From contig JAJDYI010000016.1 in assembly GCA_022825235.1 (NCBI GenBank), positions 3,365 through 67,364 of the forward strand: DNA of 64,000 bases. The letters are read 5' to 3'. Below, in pieces: positions 28,423 to 47,043 of the stretch. A program made the position numbers and the translations under genes. Source of the stretch: Alphaproteobacteria bacterium. GTDB lineage: Bacteria > Pseudomonadota > Alphaproteobacteria > TMED109. The notes beneath the pieces are model-generated. The model was not told the DNA's origin and made no database searches. It saw only the letters and a list, made by a program, of their open reading frames with translations. The stretch's first letter is position 1. Each line of letters begins with the position of its first letter.

Positions 28423-29034
28423 AGCAATTCCCTGATTGAAACGCGCCAGAAATAAATTCGGCCAATAACTATCAAATCGTGAGCGTTAAACGATTATCAT
28501 CCAGTTTCTTGAGCTGGATCTAGTCGGGATCCTGGCGTTGACGAAACGGGCGCATGCGATGCAGTCGTGTTCAAGGTATCAGCGGCGGGTACGAGCTGGT
28601 CTCACCGGCGGTTCGGTTTTGTCAAGCCGCGGCGCATTGCCGTCGCGCGACGTGGGACGCGAGCCAGGGCTAACGACACGCCGGCCCGGTGCTGACGTAG
28701 TGCAAGCCCGATACCGGGCTGTCTGGGTCGACGTAAGAGACGATCCGACGTCCGCCGAAGAGAACCTGGCGTCGGCATTCCGATACTCGAGAGCGCAGTT
28801 GACGACCAAGACCGATGCACCGGGCAGCCAAGTGCTAGTGCACATCGCCATTCGGAGCGCTCACCATGCTCCATGACGGTTGGCAACGCTGCGCGCTCCG
28901 CACCACCTGCCGCCAGTGCGAGGATGGCGTCATCCAGCCCGATGGACCGGACACGGCTTGACGACGTTACGCGCCTACGTGCGTCCGACACGGAGGACCG
29001 TCCGCACCACCATGAACGAACTGGGGAAACCACG

Positions 29035-33334: not shown

Positions 33335-33886
33335 GGTTGCCCGGAGCCCCGGAGTTGGGGCAGGTCCCGCTGCAGCGGAGGATGGTGCACCGGGACACAG
33401 TCACCGCTTCCATGCCGCCCGTCATTTGCGGCCCGTCCCCCTGTTCTGCCCACCTGCCGTGTCCGGACGCTCGATCTCCAGGCACCAGGCATCCACCCCC
33501 GTCGCGCCACCTCCGCCATGAACGACGTGGAGTGCATCGCGCCCGCCGGCCATTCGCTGAGCGCACCTTCCCAGCGCCGTTCCGGGCCACGATCGCCAGG
33601 TTCGCGCACGAGAGCAGGGGCAGCGTGGCATCACCCAACAGCGTCGATCCGCCAGCCGTGTGTCGGCCCGGCCCATGGAGATCAATCGCAGTTAAACCGT
33701 TGATCTTGCGGCACAGTCGGGTCACACAGGTCGCTGCTGGCGCCAACTGCTACATTGTTGCATTATCGCATCGGCCATGGCTGGCCAGTCGTATGTTGAA
33801 TGGACTTGCGACCGCGTCGCGTCGAAACAAGGGTTAGTCCAACTCTCGATATCGCCCGAGCGTGCCGCTGAAATACCGAACCCACG

Positions 33887-34939
33887 ATGCAGAGATTTAT
33901 CCCTGAAACTGCCCGTGCCAAGTTCCCTGCAGTCGTGGTTTGCGGGGTCAATGCCCGCGCAAGGACCGAAGTTATCGAGCACTTGCTTGGAAAGGGCGGT
34001 GCCCGCTGGGCGGTGATCAGCAACGAAGTCGATGGTCCGGCGTTTCCCGCCGCTTCGATCGAACGCATTGGCGGGCAGATGGTGCCGCATGCCATCGGGT
34101 GTCTGTGCTGTGTCACGCGCTCGGGGCTGGTCAGCAGCCTGCGCCAGCTCTTCGCCCAACGTACGCAGGGTGAAATCGAATTCGACCATGTGCTGATCGA
34201 AACCCTGGCCGACGCAGATCCGGCGCCGATCATGCAGACCCTGCTGAACAATGCCCTGGTCACCGAGTACTTTCGCCTTGACAGTGTCGTTACGGTCATG
34301 CCCGGCGGCGAAAGTTTGAACGCGCTGGCGCAATCGCAGCACGGCTTCAAACAGCTCGCCGTAGCGGACCGCGTCGTGCTGGATGCCGCATCGCTTGCCG
34401 TGCCGGAAATCCGTGCACAGGTGCAGTGCTTGAATCCGGTTGCCGATCTAGTGCCGTCCGATCGGCCTCTCCTGGCAGAAGCACTGATCGGGGCGGGCCT
34501 GGAAACACGATTGCTGGACGGTGACTTGGGCGGTTGGCTGGCATCGCCGCACTACGCCAGCAGTGATCTGCTCGAGAACGGACTGCATGGGTTCGCAATC
34601 GAGGTTCCGCGAGCGCTTGAATGGGACGCGCTGCACGGCTGGCTCAACGCGGGCACGGACACGAACGGCGATGTCATGTACCGGACGAAGGGCGCGGTCA
34701 AGATCAAGGGCGTCGATGGACCGGTAGTCATCAACGGCGTCCAGCATGTCTACCAGCCTCCGCAACGGCTGCCTGAGGTCGAGGTCGATCACTCCCGGCT
34801 GCTGTTTATCACCTCCAATCTCGACCGCGCCGCAATTGAGGACAGCCTGCGCGTCGATTTGCCCCACTTTCAGCGCCTGAGCGAAGAACGGGCGGCCCGG
34901 CAAGCCCGCGCGGTCATGGATCCATCGCTACCGGTCTAG
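33887..34939 (+). CDS. COG0523 (CobW/ZigA/YjiA) family paralog with degenerate GTPase motifs (predicted pseudo-GTPase)
   Basis: 350 aa, colinear with the canonical COG0523 at 37638-38981. [11 protein letters not shown] becomes [17 protein letters not shown] becomes [14 protein letters not shown] becomes ETLADADP, and NKID becomes LDAA. The CxCC motif is retained (GCLCCV), as is the CobW_C-like C-terminus (YRTKGAVKIKG...SRLLFITSNLD). Confidence 0.75.
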   Translation: MQRFIPETARAKFPAVVVCGVNARARTEVIEHLLGKGGARWAVISNEVDGPAFPAASIERIGGQMVPHAIGCLCCVTRSGLVSSLRQLFAQRTQGEIEFDHVLIETLADADPAPIMQTLLNNALVTEYFRLDSVVTVMPGGESLNALAQSQHGFKQLAVADRVVLDAASLAVPEIRAQVQCLNPVADLVPSDRPLLAEALIGAGLETRLLDGDLGGWLASPHYASSDLLENGLHGFAIEVPRALEWDALHGWLNAGTDTNGDVMYRTKGAVKIKGVDGPVVINGVQHVYQPPQRLPEVEVDHSRLLFITSNLDRAAIEDSLRVDLPHFQRLSEERAARQARAVMDPSLPV

Positions 34940-35064
34940 TCGAAAACGATCTTCATTATTGCCGCATGCAGCCGCCACGAAGGCGGCCGATCCTTCATCG
35001 TGTTTCGTTGCGAAATGATCGCTTTCCGCCCTGATTGCCCGCGATCAATTTCGGCGGCACGGCA

Positions 35065-35102
35065 TTGACAATCCTCAAGAATGAAATGTTATAATGAAAC
35101 AT
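35065..35102 (+). promoter_or_regulatory. Consensus sigma70-type promoter overlapped by a candidate Zur box
   Basis: TTGACA lies at 35065-35070 and TATAAT at 35090-35095, with a 19-nt spacer. The inverted repeat ATGTT-N7-AACAT (ATGTTATAATGAAACAT, 35086-35102) covers the -10 element. This is an AT-rich island in GC-rich DNA, 40 nt upstream of the cyclase ATG. Confidence 0.5.
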
Positions 35103-35142
35103 CCCACGGCATTGCAGCTGACCACGTTCTGGAGGATCTACG

Positions 35143-36309
35143 ATGACCGACGAAATCCGTGCAGACAAATCCGTTGACCAACAAGCGGTCACGGAGGAGT
35201 CTCAGGACGGCGAAGGAATGACGTCACAGTCACGCCGCACATTTATCAAGACGGCCACGGTCGCCACCGGCGCAGCAGCGGTCGGAGCCATCGGTGGTGG
35301 GGTGATGCACGAGCTGGATCTCGTCAGACCCGCGCACGCTGCCGAAGGCGGTATCGAGGGCACGCCTATCGCCGGGAAATGGTGGCCGTCTCGCTGGGGC
35401 GAGGGCGACCAAACCGGCTCGACCAACCACATGACGCCGGAAGTAGCGCTGGACGCGGCAAGCCTGATCAAGAAGGGCAAGGTGTACAGCCTGGGCCGGG
35501 TCTACGAATACGGCATGCCGTTGTTCGGTCAGCGGGTGTTCGCCCTGCGGATTCCGGGTGCTCCAACTGGGGGCGCGTTCGGCAAGAACCAGATCATCTG
35601 GCATGACGAGATCCTGACCACCGAAATCGGTCAGGTCGGCACGCAGTTCGATGGGCTCGCCCACATCGGCGCCCGAGTCGGCGAGGCGGGTGATCTGGAC
35701 CAAGAGGTGTTCTACAACGGTTTCACCACGAAGGACTTGCACAACAACGACGCCGACATGGGGTCCACTGCCGGCGCCTACGGGCTGCAAGCGCTCGGTA
35801 TGGAGCACGTCAAGCCGTTCTTCTGCCGCGGGATATTGTTCGACGTCATGAGCCTGAAGGGCCGCATGCTGGACAAGGGTGAGGAGATCACCGTCGCCGA
35901 CCTGCAGGCCTGCCTGGAACGTCAGGGCATGAGCGAAGCCGACATCACTGAAGGTAGCGCGTGCATGTGGCGCACGGGTTGGGGCGAAGAGCTTTGGATG
36001 AAGGACAACGCCCGATTCAATTCCGGCGAGCCCGGAATTGGCGTGGGTGCGGCGGAGTGGCTCGCAGCCAAGGGGATTTCCGTGGGTGCAGCCGACGTCT
36101 GGGCGATCGAGTGCGTGCCCAATCCGGATCCAAACCTGGCATTCCCCGTGCACCAGATCTTCCTGCCGAAGAACGGTATCCACATCCTGGAGAACGTACG
36201 GCTCGACCATCTGGCGAATGACGACGTCTACAAGTTCGCCTTCATTTTCTCGACGCTGCCAATCAAGGGTGCCACGGGATCACCGGGCAACCCGATTGCG
36301 GTCGTCTAG
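35143..36309 (+). CDS. Cyclase-family (kynurenine formamidase-like, PF04199-type) protein with twin-arginine signal
   Basis: 388 aa with GGAGG 7 nt upstream of the ATG. It has the Tat motif SRRTFIKTATVATGAAAVGA, then GDQTGSTNHMTPEVALDAASLIKKGKVYSLG, QVGTQFDGLAH where the family has HxGTHxDxPxH, and C-terminal FPVHQIFLPKNGIHILENVRLDHL...PIKGATGSPGNPIAVV. Confidence 0.75.
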   Translation: MTDEIRADKSVDQQAVTEESQDGEGMTSQSRRTFIKTATVATGAAAVGAIGGGVMHELDLVRPAHAAEGGIEGTPIAGKWWPSRWGEGDQTGSTNHMTPEVALDAASLIKKGKVYSLGRVYEYGMPLFGQRVFALRIPGAPTGGAFGKNQIIWHDEILTTEIGQVGTQFDGLAHIGARVGEAGDLDQEVFYNGFTTKDLHNNDADMGSTAGAYGLQALGMEHVKPFFCRGILFDVMSLKGRMLDKGEEITVADLQACLERQGMSEADITEGSACMWRTGWGEELWMKDNARFNSGEPGIGVGAAEWLAAKGISVGAADVWAIECVPNPDPNLAFPVHQIFLPKNGIHILENVRLDHLANDDVYKFAFIFSTLPIKGATGSPGNPIAVV

Positions 36310-36316
36310 CAAGACC

Positions 36317-37360
36317 TCAAGCTGGGCGGGCCAGACGGGCGAGTGTTGCGGTATCGAAACGATATCCGAACAATCGCCCGTCGGAGTCCCCGCCCAGCAA
36401 GTGGCCCCCATTCGGGGACCACGCAAGTCCCGTGACGGGACTGCTTGACGCGGTCACCAGGCTGTGCCGCTGTGGCCGCGTCGCCAAGCTCACCAACTCG
36501 AGACCGCCATCGTTGTAACCAGCGGCTGCCAGGGCGAAGCTTGGATTCGCGCAAACATTGCCGATCAACTGTTCGCTGTAGCGTCCCAGCATGCGTGGTG
36601 CCGCCGCCGGCAGGCGGCCGTCCGAGAACGGCCAACCGCTCACCGTGTCGGCCCCGGAGGCGAGCAGCCACGCGCCGTCAGCGCTCCAGCTGAGAGCCTT
36701 CACCTTGTTGAAGCATGGCCCGAGACTGGCGTCTCGTCCAGCAACGAGGTCCCAGGCGTGCACTGTTTTTTCCTGGGTCGCCGTCACCACGAACCGTCCA
36801 TCACGGCTCCAGCTAAGATTGAGGTGCGAGCCCCGGTGAAACAGACGTTGCGGCTCGCCAAATCGCCCGTCCAGCGTCCACACGCTGACCCCGTTGTAGT
36901 GCGAGACGGCCAGACGCCGGCCGCTGCCGTCAAAGGCCATGCCGGCGACGGTGCTCGGATGCTCTCCAAGGACGCCAGCCGGCCGGCCTTCGGCATCCAG
37001 CAGCCGGACTTCCGGACCGTCGGAGACCGCCCTCAGACCGCACGGGTGGGCAGCGAGTTGATCAGGCCAGGAACGGGTCAGCTGCATCAACTCCCGGGGC
37101 TTGTCCTCGGCGTGCACCTGGTAGACGGCACCGTCATCAGCCCCGCACAGGAAGCCAAGCTCCCGGCAATCGGCAGTCAGTGCCAGAACCGCGCCTTTGT
37201 TCAGCGCCCGGACCGAGAGAGACGGTTCCTGGTCGAGAAGGGCGACCATGCGGACGCAACCATCCCCTCCTGAGAAAGCCGCAAACCGCCCGCTGCGCTC
37301 AACACAAACGCCGGTCAGCGGCGCGTCCACCGTCCAGCGTTCGAGCGCATAGTCGATCAT
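36317..37360 (-). CDS. WD40-type beta-propeller protein, no signal peptide
   Basis: 347 aa with repeated strand patterns ending in W/D-type dipeptides (VSVWTLDG, TVHAWDLVAG, LSWSADGAWLLASGADTVSGW, LAWSPNGGHLLGGDSDGRLFGY). The N-terminus MIDYALERW is not hydrophobic. Confidence 0.75.
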   Translation of the reverse strand: MIDYALERWTVDAPLTGVCVERSGRFAAFSGGDGCVRMVALLDQEPSLSVRALNKGAVLALTADCRELGFLCGADDGAVYQVHAEDKPRELMQLTRSWPDQLAAHPCGLRAVSDGPEVRLLDAEGRPAGVLGEHPSTVAGMAFDGSGRRLAVSHYNGVSVWTLDGRFGEPQRLFHRGSHLNLSWSRDGRFVVTATQEKTVHAWDLVAGRDASLGPCFNKVKALSWSADGAWLLASGADTVSGWPFSDGRLPAAAPRMLGRYSEQLIGNVCANPSFALAAAGYNDGGLELVSLATRPQRHSLVTASSSPVTGLAWSPNGGHLLGGDSDGRLFGYRFDTATLARLARPA

Positions 37361-37637
37361 CGCCTGATGCCAGACCGCCCGCTGAAGGGTATTCGCCGGC
37401 CGCAGTGCGCAGGCCTCCTCGGACAGGCAAGCAAAACCCTTGAGCCACCGAAAAACGGGAACATGCGACAGCTACTGGATGTGCCGGCTTATCGCTGGGA
37501 AGACAACCTTCGCCATGCCCTAGCGCAGGGTATCCCGCCGGCGCGCAACGTGCCCACTCGATGACCGGGCCACCCTTTCCAACCGCCGGCCAGCGGGATT
37601 CGGTTCGGCTCGGCCGGTCGTGCAAAAGCAGCCACGC

Positions 37638-38981
37638 TCATCGCACCCTGCAATCGCGCAACCCCTGTTCCAGCCCAGCTTCATCCAGATTGCGGCCGAT
37701 AAAGACCAACCGGCTGGTGCGGGGTTGGTCGCCCCAGGCGTCGCCTGGCTGGCCATCGAACAGCATGTGCACGCCCTGAAACACGAACCGCAGGTCTTCA
37801 CCCGCGATCGCCACGATGCCCTTCATGCGGAAGATATCGGGGCCCTGGGTCTGCAAGAGCCGGCTCAGCCAGGCGTTGAGTGCTGCACGGTCGATCTCGC
37901 CGTCGAGTTCCAGCGCGACCGAACCGACCGTGTCGTCGTGCGTGTGCTCCGGGTTGAAGACGTGCTCCGCAGCGATGTCCATCTCCGCGCCGGCGGCATC
38001 GAAGAACCCGGCGTTGAACTCCTCCGGCATGTGCTCGGTAAACAGTGCGTACAGACCCGGCTGATCGACTGCCAGCGTGTACTCATAGTGATCGGCATCC
38101 GTGAGCGCGAGCGTCCAGAGGGTTTCGCCCGGGGACATCGCAGCGCCGGGCTGCAGCAACTCACCGGATGCGGAGAAGCGCGTGTAAACGCGTTCCGCGG
38201 TCTCCATCAGGACCTCGGACGTGGCCGCATCGACGGGCTCCAGCACCGCCGACATGACAGGGTCCGGGCCGTTCTGAAGCTTGAACGTTGCCTCGCTGCC
38301 GAGATGCAGCACGCCGCCCCACTCGAACGGGTACTCGGGTTCAAGGAAACCCGGTTTGAGTTCGAGGGCGCGGTCGAGATCGAAGCCGCCGACATCGAGC
38401 ACTTGCTCCATAGGGGCGTCGGCCATCTGAACCCGCTCAATCCGGGCCATGGCATTCATCGACCTGAGCCGCCGCTCAAGCGCATCGAGTGCCTCGGCTT
38501 CGACCAGATCGATTTTGTTGATCAGGATCACGTCAGCGAAAGCGATTTGCGACGTGGCTTCCTCGCTGTCGTCGAGATGCAACTCGGCATGTTTCGCATC
38601 GACCAGCGTGATGACGCCGTCCAGGTCAAAGGATTCGCGGGTATCGTCATCGACGAAGAACGTCTGTGCCACCGGGCCCGGGTCTGCTAGGCCGGTGGTC
38701 TCCACCAGGATCCGGTCGAACTTGTCGCGCCGCTTGACAAGGTTGCCCAGGATCCGGATCAGGTCGCCCCGCACGGTGCAGCAGATGCAGCCGTTGTTCA
38801 TCTCGAAGATTTCTTCGTCGGCATTGATCACCATGTCCTGATCGACGCCGATTTCGCCGAATTCGTTCTCGATCACAGCGATCCGCTGACCGTGGTTTTC
38901 AGTCAGAATACGGTTAAGCAACGTGGTTTTGCCGCTACCGAGAAACCCGGTCAGCACGGTTACGGGGATATGCTGGGTCAT
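37638..38981 (-). CDS. COG0523 family G3E GTPase (ZigA/YeiR/CobW-like zinc metallochaperone candidate) with a long internal insertion
   Basis: 447 aa: [17 protein letters not shown] (Walker A), ENEFGE, GCICCT (CxCC), [15 protein letters not shown] (NKxD), a short His cluster EHTHDD, and a CobW_C end ([11 protein letters not shown]...[11 protein letters not shown]). About 125 extra residues (aa 216-340) separate the G domain from the C domain. Confidence 0.9.
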
Positions 38982-38995
38982 CTCGCAATCCTGTT

Positions 38996-39013
38996 TGTTA
39001 CAATATTACACAT
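38996..39013 (-). promoter_or_regulatory. Candidate Zur box upstream of the COG0523 GTPase
   Basis: TGTTACAATATTACACAT lies 15-32 nt upstream of the ATG at 38981. It is AT-rich and partly palindromic and resembles the boxes at 35086 and 42363, but the symmetry is imperfect. Confidence 0.35.
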
Positions 39014-39578
39014 TAGCGCGAACCCCGGCGAAATTCGACAATTTTCCAATGCGCGGGAGCGGCGCCCCATCGGAGGGCGGGGACCTTTGGCCGTGGTCTC
39101 TGTCGGCCCCGGCAAGGATGAATGCCCGCGCGCTACCAATGGGCCGGCACTGATCGCAGCGGAACGATAACGCTTCAACGACACACAGCGGACTCGGGTG
39201 CGATCGATCCGAACAGCACGCTCATGCGCACCAGAGGTCAACTCTGTTGACGACAAGAGCACCCTCGTCCGCTATCTCGAGCGTCTCAACCCTTTCGAGC
39301 GCACAAGGCGTTGTCTCAAGTGCATGCAGCTCAGCACTCGGATTTGAAGCTGCCGGGGCATCAAAGTTGAGAGGGATCGATCTCATCGATCCCGCCCCGA
39401 ATTCGTGCGGCAGGCTCATGACGCCAGATCGCTGCAGGGTGTCCGGACGACAAATGGGCCCTTGCCCCTCGGACATACCTGCGACCATGACACCGGTGAC
39501 TTGGGACGACAAACTCTCGCAAACGGAATGCATGCCTCCGCGTCGTTCCTCGCCGCGAAGCGTCCACCTGCCGACCGG

Positions 39579-40496
39579 TCAGGTCGAAAGCGCCCGCGCA
39601 AGTGTCAAGGCGTTGTAGCGCATCATGTCCAGATAGGTAGACGCCGGGCCGTCCGGTTCGGACAGCGAATCGGAGTAAAGCGTCCCGCCGATGGAGGCGC
39701 CGGTTTCGTTGGCGATCTGTTCGAGCAGGCGCGAGTCCGTGATGGACTCGACAAAGATGGCCTTGATCCCCTCTTCGCGAATCTGCCGGATCAGGGCAGC
39801 GACGTCCGCAGCGGACGGCTCACTTTCAGTGCTCACGCCATGTGGCGCCACAAAATGCAAACCGTAGGTCTCGGAAAAATACCCAAAGGCGTCGTGGGAG
39901 GTAACGACAGTGCGCCCATCCTCGGGCAACCCCGCGACAATCTCGCGGATCTCGGCATCCAGCGCCTTGATCTCGGCCACATAGGCCGCTCGGTTCCGGT
40001 AGTACGAGGATGCGTTCGCAGGATCGACCGCGGCCAGCACCGCGGTGATGTTATCCACGTAAACCACTGCATTGGCAAGGCTTTGCCACGCATGCGGGTC
40101 GTAAGCGGCATGATCGTCGTTACCCTCAAACGCGATCGGCGCGATCCCTTCGGACGCCACCACGCGGATGCCGTCAAAGTTCGATGCCTCGACCAGCCGG
40201 TGCAGCCAGCCTTCGAATGCGAGGCCGTTGAACACGAGGATGTCAGCCTGGCTCACGGCACGTGCATCTGCCGGGACCGGTTGGTAGACATGCGCGTCGC
40301 CATCGGCTCCCACGAGCGTCGTGACGGCAACGTGATCACCGCCGATGCGCTCGACCATGTCTCCCAGTATCGAGAAGGTGGCAACCACTGGGACGGGGGT
40401 GTCGGACCAGGTCGACGTCGGGGCGGCCAACGACAGGCCTACGAGGGCGGTTGCGAATTTCAGCAGGCTTCTGCGGCTGGGCATCAGATCGTCCAT
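39579..40496 (-). CDS. znuA: Metal (Zn/Mn-type, cluster A-I) ABC transporter substrate-binding protein
   Basis: 305 aa with an N-terminal SRRSLLKFATALVGLSLAAP. It has DAHVYQP, YDPHAWQS, TSHDAFGYF and a ZnuA/TroA-like layout. The inter-lobe loop is short (EGNDDHAAYDPHAW), so there is no long His-rich loop. It forms an operon with the permease and ATPase. Confidence 0.8.
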   Translation of the reverse strand: MDDLMPSRRSLLKFATALVGLSLAAPTSTWSDTPVPVVATFSILGDMVERIGGDHVAVTTLVGADGDAHVYQPVPADARAVSQADILVFNGLAFEGWLHRLVEASNFDGIRVVASEGIAPIAFEGNDDHAAYDPHAWQSLANAVVYVDNITAVLAAVDPANASSYYRNRAAYVAEIKALDAEIREIVAGLPEDGRTVVTSHDAFGYFSETYGLHFVAPHGVSTESEPSAADVAALIRQIREEGIKAIFVESITDSRLLEQIANETGASIGGTLYSDSLSEPDGPASTYLDMMRYNALTLARALST

Positions 40497-41363
40497 TTAG
40501 GCTTCGACGTTACGACGCGGCAAGACTGGCGCAGCAAGACTGCCCACGGGCCCCAGGGTCAGCGACAGCCCGTAGGCGAGGCCCGCTGCGAGAATAATCG
40601 CCGGCCCGGACGGCAGTCCGAAATGGTAGGAGACGAGGAGACCGCAGCCGCTCGCGACGATGGCGATCGCGACCGCGACAAGGATCAGCCCGCCAATGCT
40701 GACGGCCCAGAAGCGCGCGGCGGCGGCCGGAACGATCATGATGCCGACCGCCATCAGCGTGCCGAGCGCATGAAAGCCGCTGACGAGGTTTATGACGACG
40801 AGCGCAAGGAAGGTGAAATGAGTCACAGCGCTCAGCCCGCTCACCGTGCGCAGGAACTGCGGGTCTGCACACTCTAGAACCAACGGGCGGAAGAGAAGTG
40901 CGAGCGCGATCAGCGTAAGGCTCGTGATGCTGCACAGTAGGATCAGCGCCGAGTCGTCGAGCGCGAGCACGGTGCCAAAGAGCACGTGCATCAAATCGAT
41001 ATTGCTCCCGCGGGTGGAGACGATCAGCACGCCAAGCGACAGCGATATCAGGTAGAAGGCGGCAAGGCTCGCATCCTCGCGCAAAGCCGTAACGCGGGTC
41101 ACGAAGCCCGAAAGCAGCGCCACGGCCATGCCGGCGACCAGACCGCCGACCGTCATGGCCCCGAGTGAGAGCCCCGCGACGAGATAGCCGACGGCAGCGC
41201 CGGGCAGAATTGCGTGCGCCATTGCATCGCCTGTCAGGCTCATCCGGCGCAACATCAGAAAGACGCCGACCGGCGTCGCGCCCGCCGAGATCGCGATGCA
41301 ACCCAGCATGGCGCGGCGCATGAAGCCAAATTCAGCAAATGGCTGAATCAAAGCTTCCCACAT
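40497..41363 (-). CDS. znuB: Metal ABC transporter permease (ABC-3 family)
   Basis: I prefer the ATG at 41363 (MWEALIQPFAEFGFMRRAMLG), which overlaps the znuC stop by 1 nt (TAATG). The protein is polytopic, and its stop abuts the znuA start. Confidence 0.85.
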   Translation of the reverse strand: MWEALIQPFAEFGFMRRAMLGCIAISAGATPVGVFLMLRRMSLTGDAMAHAILPGAAVGYLVAGLSLGAMTVGGLVAGMAVALLSGFVTRVTALREDASLAAFYLISLSLGVLIVSTRGSNIDLMHVLFGTVLALDDSALILLCSITSLTLIALALLFRPLVLECADPQFLRTVSGLSAVTHFTFLALVVINLVSGFHALGTLMAVGIMIVPAAAARFWAVSIGGLILVAVAIAIVASGCGLLVSYHFGLPSGPAIILAAGLAYGLSLTLGPVGSLAAPVLPRRNVEA

Positions 41364-42106
41364 TACAAGGCGTCTCTCCCGCAATCGTGGGGTGGGCCAA
41401 CACAGGCCTCACACATCTGGCGGGCGCGGAACTGGTTCGCGGCCGTCAACACTTCTGCCGTGGGTCCATGCGCCACGAGATCACGAGCCAGTATCAGGGT
41501 CTCGGGGAAATACGCCCGAACAGTCTCCACATCGTGCAGAACGGTGATCACGGTGCGCCCCTCTCCATGCCATCGCCGCACCACCCCCAGGAGATCGATC
41601 ATCGTCTTGGCATCGATGGCCAAGAACGGCTCGTCAAGCAGCACGAGCCGCGCGTCCTGAAGCAGGAGGCGCGCGAAGAGCGCCCGCTGGATCTGCCCGC
41701 CAGACAACGAGCCGATGGGTCGGGACTCAAACCCGGTGAGACCGACGGCTGAAATGGCATCGTCGACCTGCGCGCGATGCGCGGCGCGCAGCCCGAAAAA
41801 CCCGCCGATCTCGCTCCAGAGGCCCACCGCCACGAGATCGACCACCGTGATCGGAAACGATCGGTCGATGTCCGACTGCTGCGGCAGGTAGGCGATCTCG
41901 TTCCTCGTGCAGGTTCCGAAGTCGACGTGCCCTGCGAGTGGACGCAGGTCACCCGTCACCCCCCTTAGCAGCGTCGACTTACCCGCGCCGTTGGGCCCCA
42001 CGATGGCGGTCAAACTGCCGTCGGCTACCTCGCCATCAACGCGACGCACAGCCGGATGCCGGTCATAGCCGAGGGTCAGCTCCCGGAATGCAACGGCGTA
42101 GGTCAT
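41363..42106 (-). CDS. znuC: Metal ABC transporter ATP-binding protein
   Basis: From the ATG at 42106: MTYAVAFRELTLGYDRHP..., GPNGAGKSTLL (Walker A), LSGGQIQRALFARLL (signature) and LVLLDEPF (Walker B). Confidence 0.85.
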   Translation of the reverse strand: MTYAVAFRELTLGYDRHPAVRRVDGEVADGSLTAIVGPNGAGKSTLLRGVTGDLRPLAGHVDFGTCTRNEIAYLPQQSDIDRSFPITVVDLVAVGLWSEIGGFFGLRAAHRAQVDDAISAVGLTGFESRPIGSLSGGQIQRALFARLLLQDARLVLLDEPFLAIDAKTMIDLLGVVRRWHGEGRTVITVLHDVETVRAYFPETLILARDLVAHGPTAEVLTAANQFRARQMCEACVGPPHDCGRDAL

Positions 42107-42237
42107 AGGCCCCCCGGTGTGGACGTCGCCCAGAAGAATCCGGCCCACAGCGCCATTACGATCAGTATCGCACCGGCCAGCCGCGGACCGACGCCGATGA
42201 GAAGCATCCGGCGCGCGGTGTGGCGCCAGACTCTCAT
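42103..42237 (-). CDS. Candidate 44-aa single-pass membrane protein, translationally coupled to znuC
   Basis: This is an internal ATG of the 77-aa track ORF: MRVWRHTARRMLLIGVGPRLAGAILIVMALWAGFFWATSTPGGL. GGAGG lies 7 nt upstream, 35 of 44 codons end in G/C, and the stop overlaps the znuC start as ATGA. Confidence 0.45.
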   Translation of the reverse strand: MRVWRHTARRMLLIGVGPRLAGAILIVMALWAGFFWATSTPGGL

Positions 42238-42362
42238 GCCGGAGCCTCCGCCGAGTGCGCGGGCGTCACCTCGCCGCACTGCCATATGATGGCAAGCGGC
42301 CCTACCCGCACGTTCTCGCCACACTTCTTCACGCAACCCTCATACTCTTCCCTCGAGCCAGA

Positions 42363-42379
42363 ACGTTATATTATATCAT
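42363..42379. promoter_or_regulatory. Candidate Zur box in the divergent znuC / DUF2796 control region
   Basis: ACGTTATATTATATCAT (reverse complement ATGATATAATATAACGT) is a near-palindrome sitting in the only AT-rich stretch of the 575-bp intergenic region. Confidence 0.5.
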
Positions 42380-42680
42380 ATTATGACTCAAGGGCCTGAT
42401 CGAGCTTGCGTCCAACCCCGCGCGACTGCCACCCGAGGGCGTCACTGACTTGCTGCCGCACCATGATCACCTTTCCCCCGGCATTTTGTCGGGCGCTGAT
42501 CCTGAGAGCAGCACATCACGCGATCCGCACCCGTGCCTGGAATTCCTGAGGTTTCCTGACGGCCGCCGCGCACTCGTGCCCATCGGAAACTGCTGCATCG
42601 GGTACCGTCGCCGTAAGGTGATGCTATATCATTTGTTCTCGCGCTGAAGTCGGATCAGCGAGCCTCCTGGAGGACACGAA

Positions 42681-43301
42681 GTGACATCTGTTCGGAAATG
42701 GCACCCCCCGTACCGGATGCTGCCGGCGGTGGCTTTGGTTCCCGCCTTCCTTGCTTCGTCCGCGTTGGCAGCGAATCACGAGCACCGCGAGCATGACGCC
42801 CATGCGCATGGCCATGGAACCCTCGACATCGTGGTGGAAGGCGAGCTGGCAATGCTCGAGCTCCGCATGCCTGGCGTGAACGTCGTCGGTTTTGAGCATG
42901 CTCCGAAGGACGACGCCGAGCACGAGGCAGTGCGGCGGGCACTGGAACCTCTTCAAGACGGGGCCTCTGTCTTCGTGCTCACACCGGAGGCCGACTGCGT
43001 GATGGAGCACTCCGCAGCCGAGATCACCGCTGTAGCGGACGACGAGCATCATGACGATGGGCATCACGACGCCGATGAACACGGCGAGCACGAGGCCGAT
43101 GCCGGTGAAGAAGAGCATTCCGAACTGCGCGCGACGTATCAATTTCGTTGTGGTGCGCCGGAACGGCTTGACCGGATCGAGACGCATGTGCTCGAGCATC
43201 TGCACGACGTCGAGGAAATCGAGGTGCGGGCAGTTACGCTGACGGAGCAACTGGCAACGGAACTACACGAGGGGTCGACGGTCGTGGACCTCACGCCCTG
43301 A
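42681..43301 (+). CDS. DUF2796-like His-rich periplasmic metal-binding protein (ZrgA / PA4063-like)
   Basis: GTG start with GGAGG 7 nt upstream. It has a signal peptide (LPAVALVPAFLASSALA), then NHEHREHDAHAHGHG and DDEHHDDGHHDADEHGEHEADAGEEEH. The family name is from memory. Confidence 0.7.
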   Translation: MTSVRKWHPPYRMLPAVALVPAFLASSALAANHEHREHDAHAHGHGTLDIVVEGELAMLELRMPGVNVVGFEHAPKDDAEHEAVRRALEPLQDGASVFVLTPEADCVMEHSAAEITAVADDEHHDDGHHDADEHGEHEADAGEEEHSELRATYQFRCGAPERLDRIETHVLEHLHDVEEIEVRAVTLTEQLATELHEGSTVVDLTP

Positions 43302-43568
43302 CACCGAGCTTCAAGAACGCGCATATTCGATCTTGCAGTAACCTAGAGTGTCCCGTCCTCATCGACGATCGTTGTCCATCGAGTTGCGTCGGGACGAGCG
43401 GCAGTCCCAGGGCGGTCGACGTATTGCCTGCAGACCCAGGATGGTGCTGGCCGCGAGGAAAACGATCATGATCGAGCGCGGGCACCGACGCGCAGGAAGC
43501 CCGGCAGGAAAGCCGTTTCAGTCGCTCAGTCCCGTCGCGCCGGGGAGGGCTTGAGAGCAGAGCTTGGG

Positions 43569-44291
43569 ATGATCGTCGAAATTGACCACGTCCGATTTGC
43601 TTGGAAACCCGGTCAACGCGACATCCTCGACATCGCTTGTCTGCAGATCGCTGCCGGGGAAAGAGTATTCATCGAAGGGCCGAGCGGCAGCGGCAAGAGC
43701 ACACTGTTCAGCCTGCTCGGCGGCGTGGTAAGCCCGCAACAGGGAACGGTGCGGGTTCTTCAGGCGGAAATCTCGCGGATGCCCGCGTCCAAGCGCGACC
43801 AGTTTCGCGCCGATCACATCGGCTTCGTGTTCCAGATGTTCAATCTCGTGCCTTACCTGTCGATGATTGACAACGTCGTTCTGCCTTGCCGCTTCTCGCA
43901 GCGGCGGCTGGCGCGGGCGGCAACTAGGTCAGGCTCACCCGAAGCAGAAGCGCGTCGCCTACTCGTCCGCCTGGGGCTGGAACCGGCCGAACTGCAGGCC
44001 CGGGTGGCGACCGAACTCAGCATCGGTCAGCAACAGCGCGTGGCCATCGCGCGAGCACTGATCGGGGCGCCGGAGTTGATCATGGCGGACGAGCCGACTT
44101 CGGCCCTGGACGAGGGCTCGCGTCAGCGCTTCCTCGAAGTCTTGTCCGAACAATGCAATGAAGCCGGTGTGTCTCTCCTGTTCGCGAGCCATGATGCGCG
44201 CCTGGGCACCTCGTTCGACCGCAGGATTGCAATCGCGGAGTTGACCCCTGAAGGCTCCATGAACGCGATCAGGCCATCTGAAGGGGCGTAG
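43569..44291 (+). CDS. ABC transporter ATP-binding protein (MacB/LolD-type)
   Basis: GPSGSGKSTLFS (Walker A), LSIGQQQRVAIARAL (signature) and LIMADEPTSALD (Walker B). The start is either the ATG at 43569 or the TTG at 43551 used by the track. Confidence 0.85.
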   Translation: MIVEIDHVRFAWKPGQRDILDIACLQIAAGERVFIEGPSGSGKSTLFSLLGGVVSPQQGTVRVLQAEISRMPASKRDQFRADHIGFVFQMFNLVPYLSMIDNVVLPCRFSQRRLARAATRSGSPEAEARRLLVRLGLEPAELQARVATELSIGQQQRVAIARALIGAPELIMADEPTSALDEGSRQRFLEVLSEQCNEAGVSLLFASHDARLGTSFDRRIAIAELTPEGSMNAIRPSEGA

Positions 44292-44600
44292 TGCGCTGCC
44301 ATCGTCCGACCAGCGGTGAAGCGGGGAGCCGACCGTCCCGGGACAGAAAAGCGTCCGCCGTCGTGCAATCCGCATATGCTCGAAGGGTCGCCCTTGGGCA
44401 GCAGAACTGGAGGACTGCACAGACGCGCATGGACAGGAACGTTGTCGACCGGGAACGAACTGGGCCAATGAGAAGCTTGCCCATTCCTATGGACGCGCCA
44501 TCCGGGCTGAACCGACAGCCGCTCTGCGCGGTGCCGAGCGCCGACGCCGAACCGTTGTGTGCGGTCGTGAACCGATGAATTCACCGGGATAGCGCGACCA

Positions 44601-45860
44601 ATGGCGATGGTCCGACTTGCGCTGCTCAGCGTATTGAGCCGTCGGGTTACGGCTGGACTAACCCTTCTTGCGATCGCGATCAGCGTGGCAATGCTGCTGG
44701 GAGTGGAAAAGGTTCGCCGCGACGCCCGTGGCGCCTTCGCCAATACCATATCCGGCACCGATCTTGTCGTCGGGGCCCGCAGCGGCGCGATTCAGTTGCT
44801 TCTCTACTCGGTATTCAGGATCGGAAACGCCACGAACAACATATCCTGGGAAACCTACCAGGACATCGGAAGCTTGCCCCGGGTCCGATGGACTGTGCCG
44901 ATTTCTCTCGGGGACTCCCATCGCGGCTTCCGGGTCATGGGAACCTCAACGGACTACTTCACGCACTATCGATACGCCCGGCACGAAACGCTGCGGTTCG
45001 CCGCCGGCAGGCCGTTCGTGGACGTCTTCGATGCAGTGCTCGGGGCGGAGGTCGTCAGGCAGCTCGGCTATGCGCTCGGTGACGAGATCATCGTCTCGCA
45101 CGGTGCCGGCGAAGTGAGCTTTCTGGAACACGACGACAAACCCTTCCGTGTGGCCGGGATCCTTGCTCCCACCGGCACGCCGGTCGATCGCACCGTGCAT
45201 GTGAGCGTCGAGGGCTTCACCGCCATGCATATCGACTGGAGCGCCGGGGCGCCGATTCCAGGCCTGACGGTGACGGGCGATCAAGCCCGCAGCATGGATC
45301 TCACGCCAAAGACCATCACCGCCTTCCTGGTGGGTCTGGACAGCAAGATCGCCATCTTCGACGTCCAGAGGCGGATCAACGACTACCGCGAGGAACCGGT
45401 CCTCGCGATTATTCCCGGCGTTGCCCTGCAGGAGCTGTGGGACATGATGAGCGTCGCCGAGAACCTGCTTCGCTTCGTATCCGCCATGGTGGTGGCGACC
45501 GGGTTACTGGGGATGCTGACCGTCATCCTCTCGAGTCTTGAGGCCAGACGCCGGGAAATGGCGGTGCTCCGCTCTGTGGGAGCGAGGCCCCTGCACGTGT
45601 TCGCATTATTCATGAGTGAGGCGACGGTGTTTGCGCTGGTCGGGGCGGCAACCGGAGTGGCCCTGCTTTACGTCGCGCTGCTGATCGGCCAACCGATGGT
45701 GGCGCGCGAATTTGGCCTGCATCTGCCGATCGCAATTCTCGGGCCGTCGGACTGGTGGATCATCCTGGCGGTGGTCGTGGCAGGGACCGCAGCCGGTGCC
45801 ATTCCTGCAATCCGGGCCTACCGACTGTCGCTCGCCGACGGTCTATCGATTAGGATTTGA
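44601..45860 (+). CDS. FtsX/MacB-type ABC transporter permease
   Basis: 419 aa with an N-terminal TM helix (LTLLAIAISVAMLLG), a large extracytoplasmic domain and three C-terminal TM helices with an FtsX-like pattern (REMAVLRSVGARPLHVF). Confidence 0.85.
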   Translation: MAMVRLALLSVLSRRVTAGLTLLAIAISVAMLLGVEKVRRDARGAFANTISGTDLVVGARSGAIQLLLYSVFRIGNATNNISWETYQDIGSLPRVRWTVPISLGDSHRGFRVMGTSTDYFTHYRYARHETLRFAAGRPFVDVFDAVLGAEVVRQLGYALGDEIIVSHGAGEVSFLEHDDKPFRVAGILAPTGTPVDRTVHVSVEGFTAMHIDWSAGAPIPGLTVTGDQARSMDLTPKTITAFLVGLDSKIAIFDVQRRINDYREEPVLAIIPGVALQELWDMMSVAENLLRFVSAMVVATGLLGMLTVILSSLEARRREMAVLRSVGARPLHVFALFMSEATVFALVGAATGVALLYVALLIGQPMVAREFGLHLPIAILGPSDWWIILAVVVAGTAAGAIPAIRAYRLSLADGLSIRI

Positions 45861-45862
45861 CA

Positions 45863-46426
45863 ATGTCGACACTACGACCACGGGATATCGGTACCTTGGC
45901 AGTGACGCTGGCCACGATCGCGCTGCTCGCGGCGCCGGCACCCGGTGGGCCCGCTCAGGCAGCGCAGGATGAGGCGCGGGAACTCGGGTGGGATGATCTC
46001 GCGCCCGCTGACTGGGATCCGCTCGCCGGGCTCGAGGCCCTGGGCGGAGAAGACCTGCAAGGCCTGACCGACGACAGCGATCGGGCTGGGGAGATGCTCG
46101 AGGCCTATCGTGAAGCAGCCCGCTCGGCCCCGGTCGTGGGCGAGCTCGACGGCCAGCGGATCCGGATTCCCGGATACATCGTCCCGCTGGAATTCGACCA
46201 CCTAGTGGTCTCTGAGTTCCTGCTCGTACCGTACTTCGGTGCCTGCATCCACGTACCCCCGCCGCCCGCGAACCAGATCGTCTACGTGACAACGGAAACT
46301 TCATTTCCGACGACGAAGGTCTTCAAACCGGTCTGGGTAACCGGTGTGATCAGGACGCAGGCGTACCTCAACGAGGTCGGCGACGCCGGATACCGGATGC
46401 ACGCGATGAACATCGAGCTCTACTGA
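45863..46426 (+). CDS. DUF3299-like exported protein (ZrgD / PA4066-like)
   Basis: It has a signal peptide (LAVTLATIALLAAPAPGGPAQA) and the hallmark LLVPYFGACIHVPPPPANQIVYV. It starts 2 nt after the permease stop. Confidence 0.75.
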   Translation: MSTLRPRDIGTLAVTLATIALLAAPAPGGPAQAAQDEARELGWDDLAPADWDPLAGLEALGGEDLQGLTDDSDRAGEMLEAYREAARSAPVVGELDGQRIRIPGYIVPLEFDHLVVSEFLLVPYFGACIHVPPPPANQIVYVTTETSFPTTKVFKPVWVTGVIRTQAYLNEVGDAGYRMHAMNIELY

Positions 46427-46548
46427 TCCGGTCCGCCACCTGTGGAAATAGACAGCGGCGCCCGGGCCCTCAGAGGCGGGGGCTGCCGACACGGATATAC
46501 GCTGCCACGTGAGCGTTAGTTGACGGCGGCGCGACGCGGGGCGTCACC

Positions 46549-47043
46549 TCAGGCGTCAGTGACCTCAACGCAAACCGGACACCGGCCCATCACTTCCAGC
46601 ACGTGGGCGCGGAGTTCGAAGTCGGACTCGGCAGCCAGTTCCTGCACCGTGCGACTCAGACTGTCCACGCTCGGTTCGGCAACGATCCCGCACTCCTCGC
46701 ATACCAGCAACACCGTGCCGTGCCCCTCTCCCTGGCTGCTGCAGGCGACATAGGCGTTTCGGCTCGCGATGCGGTGCACCAGACCCATGGTCTCGAGGAA
46801 CGCAAGCGCACGGTAGATCTGGGCCGGGGCCGGTTTTCGGCCCTTCCAGTCGAACCGCTCAAGGATTTCGTAGGCGCCGGCAAGCCGGTGTTCTGCAAGC
46901 AAGAGCTCCAGCACTTGCCGACGGTTGTCGGTCAACCGCTCCTGCTGGCCCCGACATACTTTCTCGGCCCGGGCAAGGCCGGCCGCAATGCACCTGCCGT
47001 GGTCATGATGAGACGACGGGAACAGAGACGATTGGCCTGCCAT
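46549..47043 (-). CDS. zur: Fur-family zinc uptake regulator
   Basis: 164 aa with a winged-helix segment (RRQVLELLLAEHRLAGAYEILERF...IYRALAFLETMGLVHRI), CEECG and a C-terminal CPVC metal site. The genomic context is zinc uptake genes. Confidence 0.85.
   Translation of the reverse strand: MAGQSSLFPSSHHDHGRCIAAGLARAEKVCRGQQERLTDNRRQVLELLLAEHRLAGAYEILERFDWKGRKPAPAQIYRALAFLETMGLVHRIASRNAYVACSSQGEGHGTVLLVCEECGIVAEPSVDSLSRTVQELAAESDFELRAHVLEVMGRCPVCVEVTDA

Follow-up and report, generated by a model that had tools for sequence, protein, structure and literature searches.

A predicted Zur-controlled zinc-starvation island in which a COG0523-WD40 pair is joined by a nucleotide-site-deficient COG0523 paralogue and a putative Tat-exported esterase

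The central question for the bacterial metallochaperones of the COG0523 family is which client proteins they serve and how delivery of the metal is controlled. The closest described gene sets are comparative-genomic predictions: Zur operons of the type znuCBA-COG0523-5-WD40(-sapB) in Bradyrhizobium, Nitrobacter and Rhodopseudomonas, and Zur operons of the type COG0523-5-WD40 in many cyanobacteria (Haas 2009, BMC Genomics 10:470, PMC2770081). Prokaryotic proteins of subfamily 5, a group that also holds the eukaryotic ZNG1/CBWD proteins, cluster with WD40 genes and znuABC (PMC2770081). The locus described here comes from the same bacterial class as the znuCBA-type operons. It is a 13-kb zinc-starvation gene island at positions 33887-47043 of a 64-kb window, the whole stretch of alphaproteobacterial DNA that was analysed (contig JAJDYI010000016.1). 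The island shares with these operons the order of importer, COG0523 and WD40 genes on one strand and the type of Zur box (GTAATGTTATAATATAAC...), and thus has the gene context of subfamily 5 (WD40, importer and Zur boxes); the likeness is one of context. In contrast to them, it also contains a gene for a predicted esterase of the cyclase family PF04199 with a signal for twin-arginine translocation (Tat) and a second COG0523 gene whose product has lost the nucleotide-binding motifs, and its complete COG0523 GTPase carries an inserted domain of which the earlier description makes no mention. The later reviews and papers on COG0523 that were searched do not mention the WD40 partner.

The Fur-family repressor, the AztABC-like importer, the ZrgABCD-like transporter and the COG0523-WD40 pair are known parts. 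New are the conserved addition of a putative pseudo-GTPase and a predicted exported esterase, and an uncatalogued domain within the GTPase. An earlier note on this DNA had not recognized the combination as a described system, which is correct for the pseudo-GTPase and the esterase but overlooks the importer-COG0523-WD40 operons of 2009.

Several characterized systems resemble parts of the island. In eukaryotes ZNG1, a COG0523 GTPase of subfamily 5 with a CxCC motif, delivers zinc to a hydrolase client, METAP1, under zinc limitation. ZNG1, however, docks to its client through an N-terminal CPxLxP motif that is absent from the bacterial homologues; the client proposed here is a Tat-exported PF04199 hydrolase, and the WD40 protein and the pseudo-GTPase are extra. 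ZigA/MigC of Acinetobacter baumannii likewise combines a G-domain with a C-terminal domain carrying the RxKG finger, and the linker of ZigA gates zinc-stimulated GTP hydrolysis. In the GTPase of the island, by contrast, a folded domain of some 135 residues takes the place of the linker, and the second paralogue keeps the finger without the nucleotide site. HypB, a G3E GTPase, inserts nickel into [NiFe] hydrogenase in the cytoplasm before Tat export. HypB/HypA may be regarded as an analogue in which metal is loaded prior to Tat export, although the GTPase subfamily, the metal and the client are different and neither a WD40 protein nor a pseudo-GTPase takes part.

All the gene families named in the earlier note were found in their places by Pfam and NCBIfam profile searches (Table 1). 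The core of the island consists of four non-transporter genes (33887-38981) encoding the degenerate COG0523 paralogue, here called COG0523-X, the esterase, the WD40 protein and the long COG0523 GTPase. A neighbourhood scan with an alignment of the WD40 protein against one genome per species confirmed 541 loci, the best 80 of which were fetched. The four genes are found together in at least 21 loci from metagenome-assembled genomes (MAGs) of Alpha-, Beta- and Gammaproteobacteria. The full set accompanied by an Azt-like operon is present in the window and in loci L001-L013 and L017. More distant loci with the full set (L081, a 27-kb contig, L083, L085 from a betaproteobacterial Rhodocyclaceae MAG, and L172) were found through homologues of COG0523-X that are 40-43% identical or of the esterase that are 70% identical. 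Their order, COG0523X-Fur-esterase-WD40-COG0523(449-460 aa)-NicO, and their orientation differ from those of the window, so that gene order varies across lineages while gene content is retained. The earlier note had made its proposal of a four-gene module depend on such co-occurrence, which is found in related and distant genomes alike. Two further features of the distant loci concern their neighbours. A membrane protein of the NicO family (PF03824) always follows the long COG0523 in L081, L083, L085 and L172, where in this Beta-type module it occupies the place of the Azt and Zrg transporters of the window, and one or two Fur-family genes lie within the four-gene module.

COG0523-X was examined by regular-expression search and alignment, and both bear out the degenerate nucleotide site attributed to it earlier. 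It has no GxxGxGK[ST] (Walker A), ExxG or NKxD motif: the P-loop reads CGVNARART and the position of NKxD reads VLDAAS. The metal site (CLCC, residue 72) and the finger (RTKG, residue 266) are retained, and the fold is, by its Pfam matches, still COG0523-like. In the alignment of the family C72, C74, C75 and R266 are invariant, and the RxKG arginine, R266, remains unchanged when ordinary COG0523 proteins are compared with COG0523-X. The family comprises about 70 protein clusters of 39-95% identity, all with an intact open reading frame (ORF), and has motifs of its own: VPHAxGCLCCVxRSGLV, ADPAPVMQTLLNNALVT, WDALHGWLNAG and, at the C-terminus, a tail that ends in DPSLP. Distant members have kept GxGKT and lost NKxD; the clade of the window has also lost Walker A and ExxG. 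Recently, the RxKG motif of the COG0523 C-terminal domain was shown to be an arginine finger ("self-gapping"), and a cognate C-terminal domain was found to be able to act in trans (2026 preprint, PMC13001444). COG0523-X would lack GTPase activity, and a role as a regulator or adaptor that holds the metal site and the finger without a nucleotide site is plausible from its sequence. Such a paralogue bears directly on the "self-gapping" model.

The long COG0523 has all five motifs: Walker A, CxCC, ExxG, NKxD and RxKG (as RMKG). Its NCBIfam match to ZigA reaches only 185 bits against a cut-off of 600. When it is aligned with E. coli YjiA (E = 4.5e-59), residues of about 213-349 have no counterpart, which confirms the insert seen previously in this protein. 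Residues 205-352 were searched against 1.8 billion representative proteins and gave 159 matches at E <= 1e-3. The matches define a discrete domain of about 135 residues that contains the motifs YPFEWxG, GPDPxM and FTEHxPxEF; in the numbering of the insert, its invariant residues are E16, W17, G19, H113, E117 and F118. CobW_C is also present on 67 of the 146 matches that were scanned with Pfam. Other copies are fused to ZnuA-family proteins (four), to CusB/HlyD proteins (four) and, once each, to a CDF exporter, a ZIP transporter, CbtA and a TPR protein, and stand-alone copies make up small proteins that have a lipoprotein or Tat signal and a tail rich in His (P0372, P0433, P0388). The fusion P0350, of the ZnuA family, has the domain at ZnuA profile positions between about 72 and 121, presumably the site expected for the His-rich loop of ZnuA. 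At least six kinds of metal-handling protein, located on both sides of the membrane, contain the domain.

The insert domain is in none of the domain and structure databases searched. Twenty members gave no Pfam match at E <= 0.05, and the insert of the window gave none whatever; NCBIfam yielded no match, and the best PDB profile had E = 0.15. The AlphaFold2 model (predicted local distance difference test, pLDDT, 91.8; predicted template modelling score, pTM, 0.85) is a beta-sandwich with one long helix, for which Foldseek found no significant match in PDB (best E = 0.039, template modelling (TM) score <= 0.38). Kinship with ZrgA or DUF3299 was rejected with hhalign probabilities below 1%, and kinship with ZepA was rejected on the absence of the ZepA zinc motif H-x(2-9)-H-F/Y-H. 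The fusion partners and the positions of the domain argue for a metal-binding role, and the insert probably binds metal. Because the ZigA linker gates zinc-stimulated GTP hydrolysis, the location of the insert in the linker is mechanistically suggestive. If the domain binds zinc, it would be a new building block of metal homeostasis, and its annotation would change the reading of hundreds of transporters and chaperones.

The WD40 protein has no signal peptide, as had been noted, and in its AlphaFold2 model (pLDDT 93.3) a beta-strand begins at residue 4. The best fold match in PDB is ODA16 (TM score 0.83), an eight-bladed propeller, and the others are generic WD40 propellers. Its invariant histidines sit in the ordinary GH/WD repeat signatures (SHY, GSH, HAWD) and are therefore not evidence of metal binding. 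No specific function is marked out for the protein beyond its conserved pairing with COG0523. That pairing is close: of the best 80 of the 541 confirmed loci, nearly all have a COG0523 gene as the immediate upstream neighbour of the WD40 gene, and the pair is kept in Acetobacteraceae-type loci, though the WD40 protein there is only 33-38% identical. A conserved element was sought in the 277-bp spacer between the two genes and none was found; its length and sequence vary. A protein of 226 residues (P0318) combines a C-terminal portion of the insert domain with a WD40 segment (E = 3e-50 in a phmmer comparison with the WD40 protein of the window). It is either a true fusion of COG0523 and WD40 or the product of a gene called wrongly on a short contig.

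The closest solved relative of the esterase is MGS0169 (PDB 5IBZ), which matches the whole catalytic domain at E = 4e-30. MGS0169 is a metagenomic metal-dependent carboxylesterase stimulated in the order Mn > Mg > Co > Ni, and mutagenesis has shown that its Gln127-Gln131-Asp133-His137 motif is needed for activity (PMC5341072). Its subfamily has esterase and lactamase chemistry and lacks two of the His ligands of the zinc-dependent KynB (PMC5341072). The protein of the island shares the Q-x3-Q-x-D-x3-H motif and the His/Glu pair of MGS0169: all 18 of the 18 homologues have Q164-x3-Q168-x-D170-x3-H174, H337 and E350. Where the KynB motif H-x-G-T-H-x-D-x-P-x-H binds two zinc ions, the sequence departs from it and reads Q-V-G-T-Q-F-D-G-L-A-H, without variation among the 18. 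The "altered ligands" of the earlier note are the conserved motif of the MGS0169 subfamily, validated by mutagenesis, and not decay. The protein is, on this evidence, classed as a putative metal-dependent esterase of the MGS0169 type. It differs from MGS0169, for which no zinc or Zur link is reported in its paper, in that the clade found in the module adds a 10-residue clade-specific insertion and a Tat signal. The RR-x-F motif of the latter is invariant in the same 18 homologues, and the signal itself, SRRTFIK...AHA|AE, matches Pfam TAT_signal and TIGR01409 and predicts export. The literature searched contained no paper linking Zur regulons with kynurenine formamidase, and the two papers found to name both COG0523 and twin-arginine are reviews of general scope.

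Relatives of the esterase were also examined for a general link to COG0523, which was rejected: those of 50-60% identity lie in unrelated contexts, one of five with a COG0523 gene nearby. In L014 (5988-9981, + strand) the place of the long COG0523 directly upstream of the WD40 gene is taken by a hydantoinase/oxoprolinase B gene with a likely A-subunit ORF just 5' of it, and in L086 and L170 a fused hydantoinase A/B gene lies directly 5' of esterase genes of the broader clade. These neighbours hint that the esterases are linked to cyclic-amide metabolism.

The window was scanned for Zur boxes with a symmetrised matrix based on 22 sites that had been published for Alpha- and Gammaproteobacteria (Haas 2009, supplementary file 5). 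The 13 best matches of the whole 64-kb window all fall within the island, and the top score among 50 shuffles was 15.6 bits. The box pattern of the earlier note gave 8 matches where 0.95 were expected, and the core of the box before the esterase gene, ATGTTATAATGAAACAT, matches it exactly. Four AT-rich boxes had been named. The matrix gives five of unequal strength: three are solid, before the micro-ORF and azt-like operon, the esterase and the long COG0523, and two, before zrgA and COG0523-X, are marginal. Boxes are also present at the corresponding positions of 17 related loci, in front of the genes for the esterase and the long COG0523 and of the importer operon. The position before the esterase is kept in L001-L005, L007, L011-L013 and L017, that before the long COG0523 in L001, L002, L004-L006, L009, L011 and L013, and for the importer operon every related locus has boxes upstream of its counterpart. 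The COG0523-X gene of the related loci lies inside an operon with a strong box or is divergent from one. The confinement of the matches to the island and their conservation uphold the earlier description of a Zur-type zinc-limitation island, and on sequence evidence the prediction that Zur controls the whole island is well supported.

Based on these findings, a zinc-allocation function may be proposed for the four-gene module. When zinc is scarce, Zur would leave the boxes that precede the importer operon and the genes for the esterase and the long COG0523. The long COG0523 would bind metal at CxCC, and probably also at the insert that replaces the gating linker, and GTP hydrolysis would hand the metal on; the WD40 propeller would be its docking platform. 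COG0523-X, without GTP hydrolysis, might be an esterase-specific adaptor or a GTPase activator acting in trans. The esterase precursor would acquire its catalytic metal in the cytoplasm and then be exported in the folded state by Tat. G3E GTPases are usually encoded beside the enzyme that they metallate, as is the case for UreG, HypB, MeaB and the nitrile hydratase activator (PMC2770081). The esterase is a plausible client because it is the most conserved of the four proteins (93% identity in L001, against 79% for the WD40 protein), its Tat motif is invariant, and its relative needs a divalent metal. Metallation of the esterase precursor by the cytoplasmic COG0523 and WD40 proteins before Tat export is the reading preferred here, tentatively and somewhat short of probable. 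It would provide a candidate client for a bacterial COG0523 protein, an exported metal-dependent esterase whose relatives can be assayed by a simple colour reaction.

Several observations weigh against metallation of the esterase by the module. A metagenome scan for the insert domain, in which a six-sequence subset of the alignment was used, returned 80 loci. The insert-bearing COG0523 is present in 80/80 of them and the WD40 gene lies directly downstream in 37 of the 59 with enough downstream flank, but the esterase is found in 0/80. It is also missing from the sixty-odd Acetobacteraceae-type loci. A strict tie of the insert-bearing COG0523 to the esterase holds in the genomes selected through the WD40 protein and is ruled out by the metagenome scan, so that this COG0523 is not confined to the four-gene set. 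The COG0523-WD40 pair occurs widely where the esterase is lacking and must therefore also fulfil some other role of a more general kind. Conversely, L014 and L015 have no long COG0523 within 10 kb, and the rarity of COG0523 beside the more distant esterase relatives points the same way. Some members of the COG0523-X clade retain the P-loop Lys, so that nucleotide binding is possible for them. The preference of MGS0169 for Mn, then Mg, Co and Ni means that the cargo may not be zinc. Finally, Zur control of COG0523-X in the window is only weakly indicated, its predicted box being marginal.

Part of this evidence would also fit shared regulation alone, with the esterase as a zinc-independent (Mn or Mg) stand-in for a zinc-dependent hydrolase of the periplasm and the COG0523-WD40 pair and COG0523-X serving unrelated cytoplasmic clients. 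The order of metals and the two missing KynB ligands in the MGS0169 subfamily agree with such a stand-in, and low-zinc paralogues are typical of Zur regulons (PMC2770081); in addition, the esterase gene stands in a transcription unit apart, with a Zur box to itself, and the COG0523-WD40 pair does without it in many loci. Against shared regulation alone stands the constancy of the gene set. In no locus whose contig permitted a check was COG0523-X found apart from the esterase clade, over about 40% divergence and several gene orders, and esterases of the clade, at 70% identity or more, always adjoin module genes, whereas broader relatives do not. Nor was a zinc-dependent counterpart identified that the esterase would replace. 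This explanation is considered rather unlikely.

A zinc-acquisition enzyme, which would cleave an ester, lactone or amide of a zincophore or host chelator and so free zinc for AztC or ZrgA, is a more improbable role for the esterase. The periplasmic siderophore esterases IroE and PfeE are analogues of such an enzyme. The periplasmic location predicted from the invariant Tat motif, the esterase/lactamase chemistry of the MGS0169 subfamily and the position beside two zinc importers under Zur boxes are all as this role would require. On the other hand, no zincophore biosynthesis genes were seen in the island, the nearby TonB-dependent receptor gene has no Zur box, the Beta-type module is accompanied by NicO and Fur and not by a binding-protein-dependent importer, and the tight link to two cytoplasmic COG0523 proteins is left unexplained. 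It is very improbable that COG0523-X is a functionless, decaying duplicate and the four-gene cluster an accident of descent in one lineage: the loss of Walker A, ExxG and NKxD and the origin of most loci from related, uncultured MAGs would agree with decay, but the ORF is intact throughout those roughly 70 divergent clusters, CxCC, RxKG, WDALHGWLNAG and the C-terminal tail are conserved, relatives with an intact Walker A motif occur in the same gene set, and gene content is kept while gene order varies among lineages.

Metallation of the esterase before export is one of three linked proposals. According to the first, the insert is a mobile metal-binding domain with an invariant E-W...H...E-F signature, placed at the usual sites of flexible, metal-capturing, His-rich segments (the linker of COG0523, the loop of ZnuA, the tail of CDF and the N-terminus of ZIP and of CusB-like proteins) and present by itself in secreted lipoproteins rich in His. 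According to the second, COG0523-X is a natural pseudo-GTPase that acts as a trans-acting arginine-finger or metal-holding partner. According to the third, the esterase is the first defined bacterial COG0523 client to be metallated before export. That all three are correct together is doubtful.

Table 1. Genes, insert domain and predicted Zur boxes of the island (window coordinates)
Feature	Position	Strand	Evidence
Marginal Zur-box-like site, about 120 bp before COG0523-X	33744-33766		11.4 bits, under the shuffle maximum of 15.6
COG0523-X, COG0523 paralogue with weak G-domain score	33887-34939	+	Pfam cobW 63 bits, CobW_C 56 bits
Strong predicted Zur box, 38 bp before the esterase start codon	35083-35105		27.4 bits
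PF04199 cyclase-family hydrolase with Tat signal (predicted esterase)	35143-36309	+	Pfam Cyclase 65 bits
WD40 protein	36317-37360	-	Pfam WD40
Long COG0523 GTPase, 447 aa	37638-38981	-	Pfam cobW 208 bits, CobW_C 94 bits
Insert domain inside the long COG0523, residues 205-352	37926-38369	-	Homology search and AlphaFold2 model
Strong predicted Zur box, 11 bp before the long COG0523 start codon	38992-39014		24.7 bits
AztC-like zinc-binding protein of ABC importer (ZnuA family)	39579-40496	-	Pfam ZnuA 307 bits
ABC-3 permease, AztB-like	40497-41384	-	Pfam ABC-3 159 bits
ABC ATPase, AztA-like; likely start ATG at 42106	41363-42106	-	Pfam ABC_tran
44-aa micro-ORF, one predicted transmembrane segment	42103-42237	-	Translation, conserved in related loci
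Strongest predicted Zur box, 5' of the micro-ORF and azt-like operon	42360-42382		29.1 bits
Marginal Zur-box-like site, 46 bp before zrgA	42613-42635		15.0 bits, about the shuffle maximum
ZrgA-family (DUF2796) periplasmic zinc protein	42681-43301	+	Pfam ZrgA 151 bits
ABC ATPase of Zrg-like MacB-type transporter	43551-44291	+	Pfam ABC_tran 103 bits
MacB/FtsX-type permease	44601-45860	+	Pfam MacB_PCD, FtsX
DUF3299 protein, ZrgD-like	45857-46426	+	Pfam DUF3299 154 bits
Fur-family regulator, most likely Zur	46549-47043	-	Pfam FUR; NCBIfam Zur 102 bits

The two transporters of the island match AztABCD of Paracoccus denitrificans and ZrgABCDE / PA4063-PA4066 at the family level. The ATP-binding cassette (ABC) importer had been labelled ZnuCBA. 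Its binding protein scores 319 bits with the NCBIfam model of AztC (cut-off 350) against 62 bits with that of ZnuA, and its top PDB matches are 5KZJ (E = 1.5e-88) and 5W56/5W57, taken here to be structures of AztC. The PDB matches and the profile scores, of which that for AztC stays under the cut-off, point to an AztABC-like importer and not to ZnuABC in the strict sense. Unlike AztABCD, the island has no AztD: none was found there, and the sole propeller of the island, the cytoplasmic WD40 protein, was rejected as a candidate since it has no signal peptide, has no NCBIfam match and resembles generic WD40 folds. The second transporter contains all four Pfam families of ZrgABCDE/PA4063-4066 in order (ZrgA, ABC ATPase, FtsX/MacB permease and DUF3299). 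Its ZrgA-family protein reaches 143 bits with the NCBIfam ZrgA model, under the cut-off of 185.

A further difference from AztABCD is the micro-ORF that precedes the ATPase gene. It encodes 44 residues with one hydrophobic segment, MRVWRHTARRMLLIGVGPRLAGAILIVMALWAGFFWATSTPGGL. The start codon of the ATPase gene overlaps the stop codon of the micro-ORF in an ATGA arrangement, which indicates translational coupling. In 13 related loci the micro-ORF also adjoins the ATPase gene and its C-terminal half is near-identical (...LLIGVGPRLAxAxLIxMxLWAxFFWATSTPGxL, followed by the stop codon). This conserved membrane micro-ORF coupled to an importer ATPase gene is new, and it probably encodes a small, so far unannotated membrane protein that serves the Azt-like transporter as a subunit or as a regulator.

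The Fur-family protein contains two CxxC pairs, CEEC and CPVC, and its best NCBIfam model is that of Zur, with a score under the cut-off of 167 bits. It is most likely Zur and not another Fur paralogue, an identity that rests on context, namely the boxes at zinc genes. A second, divergent Fur-family gene is found directly upstream of the Azt-like operon in L004, L005, L008-L010 and L012, and also in L001/L002; its product is 35-40% identical to the Zur of the window and the gene lies behind a strong Zur box. This second gene is absent from the window, L003, L007 and L017.

Compact, operon-like runs of the island are interrupted by long intergenic gaps at 38982-39578 (597 bp), 43302-43550 (249 bp) and 44292-44600 (309 bp). 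These three gaps contain no Rfam family and no ORF or DNA conserved in related loci, and their sole repeat is one weak 12-nt inverted pair in 38982-39578. A scan for sigma-70 promoters and terminators gave matches no more numerous than in shuffles. A gene for a TonB-dependent receptor (28873-31512, + strand) is located 2.4 kb to the left of the island; the Zur-matrix scan gave no box there, and the gene is probably outside the zinc regulon.

The G+C content of the island is 63.0%, against 67.4% and 68.5% in its flanks, and the low-GC patches are the intergenic regions, where the predicted Zur boxes lie. In L003 the gene order of the whole 13 kb is kept, and the DNA fetched around it has no match to the genes that flank the island in the window. 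The contrast in G+C and the flanks of L003 suggest that the island moves or is rearranged as a unit.

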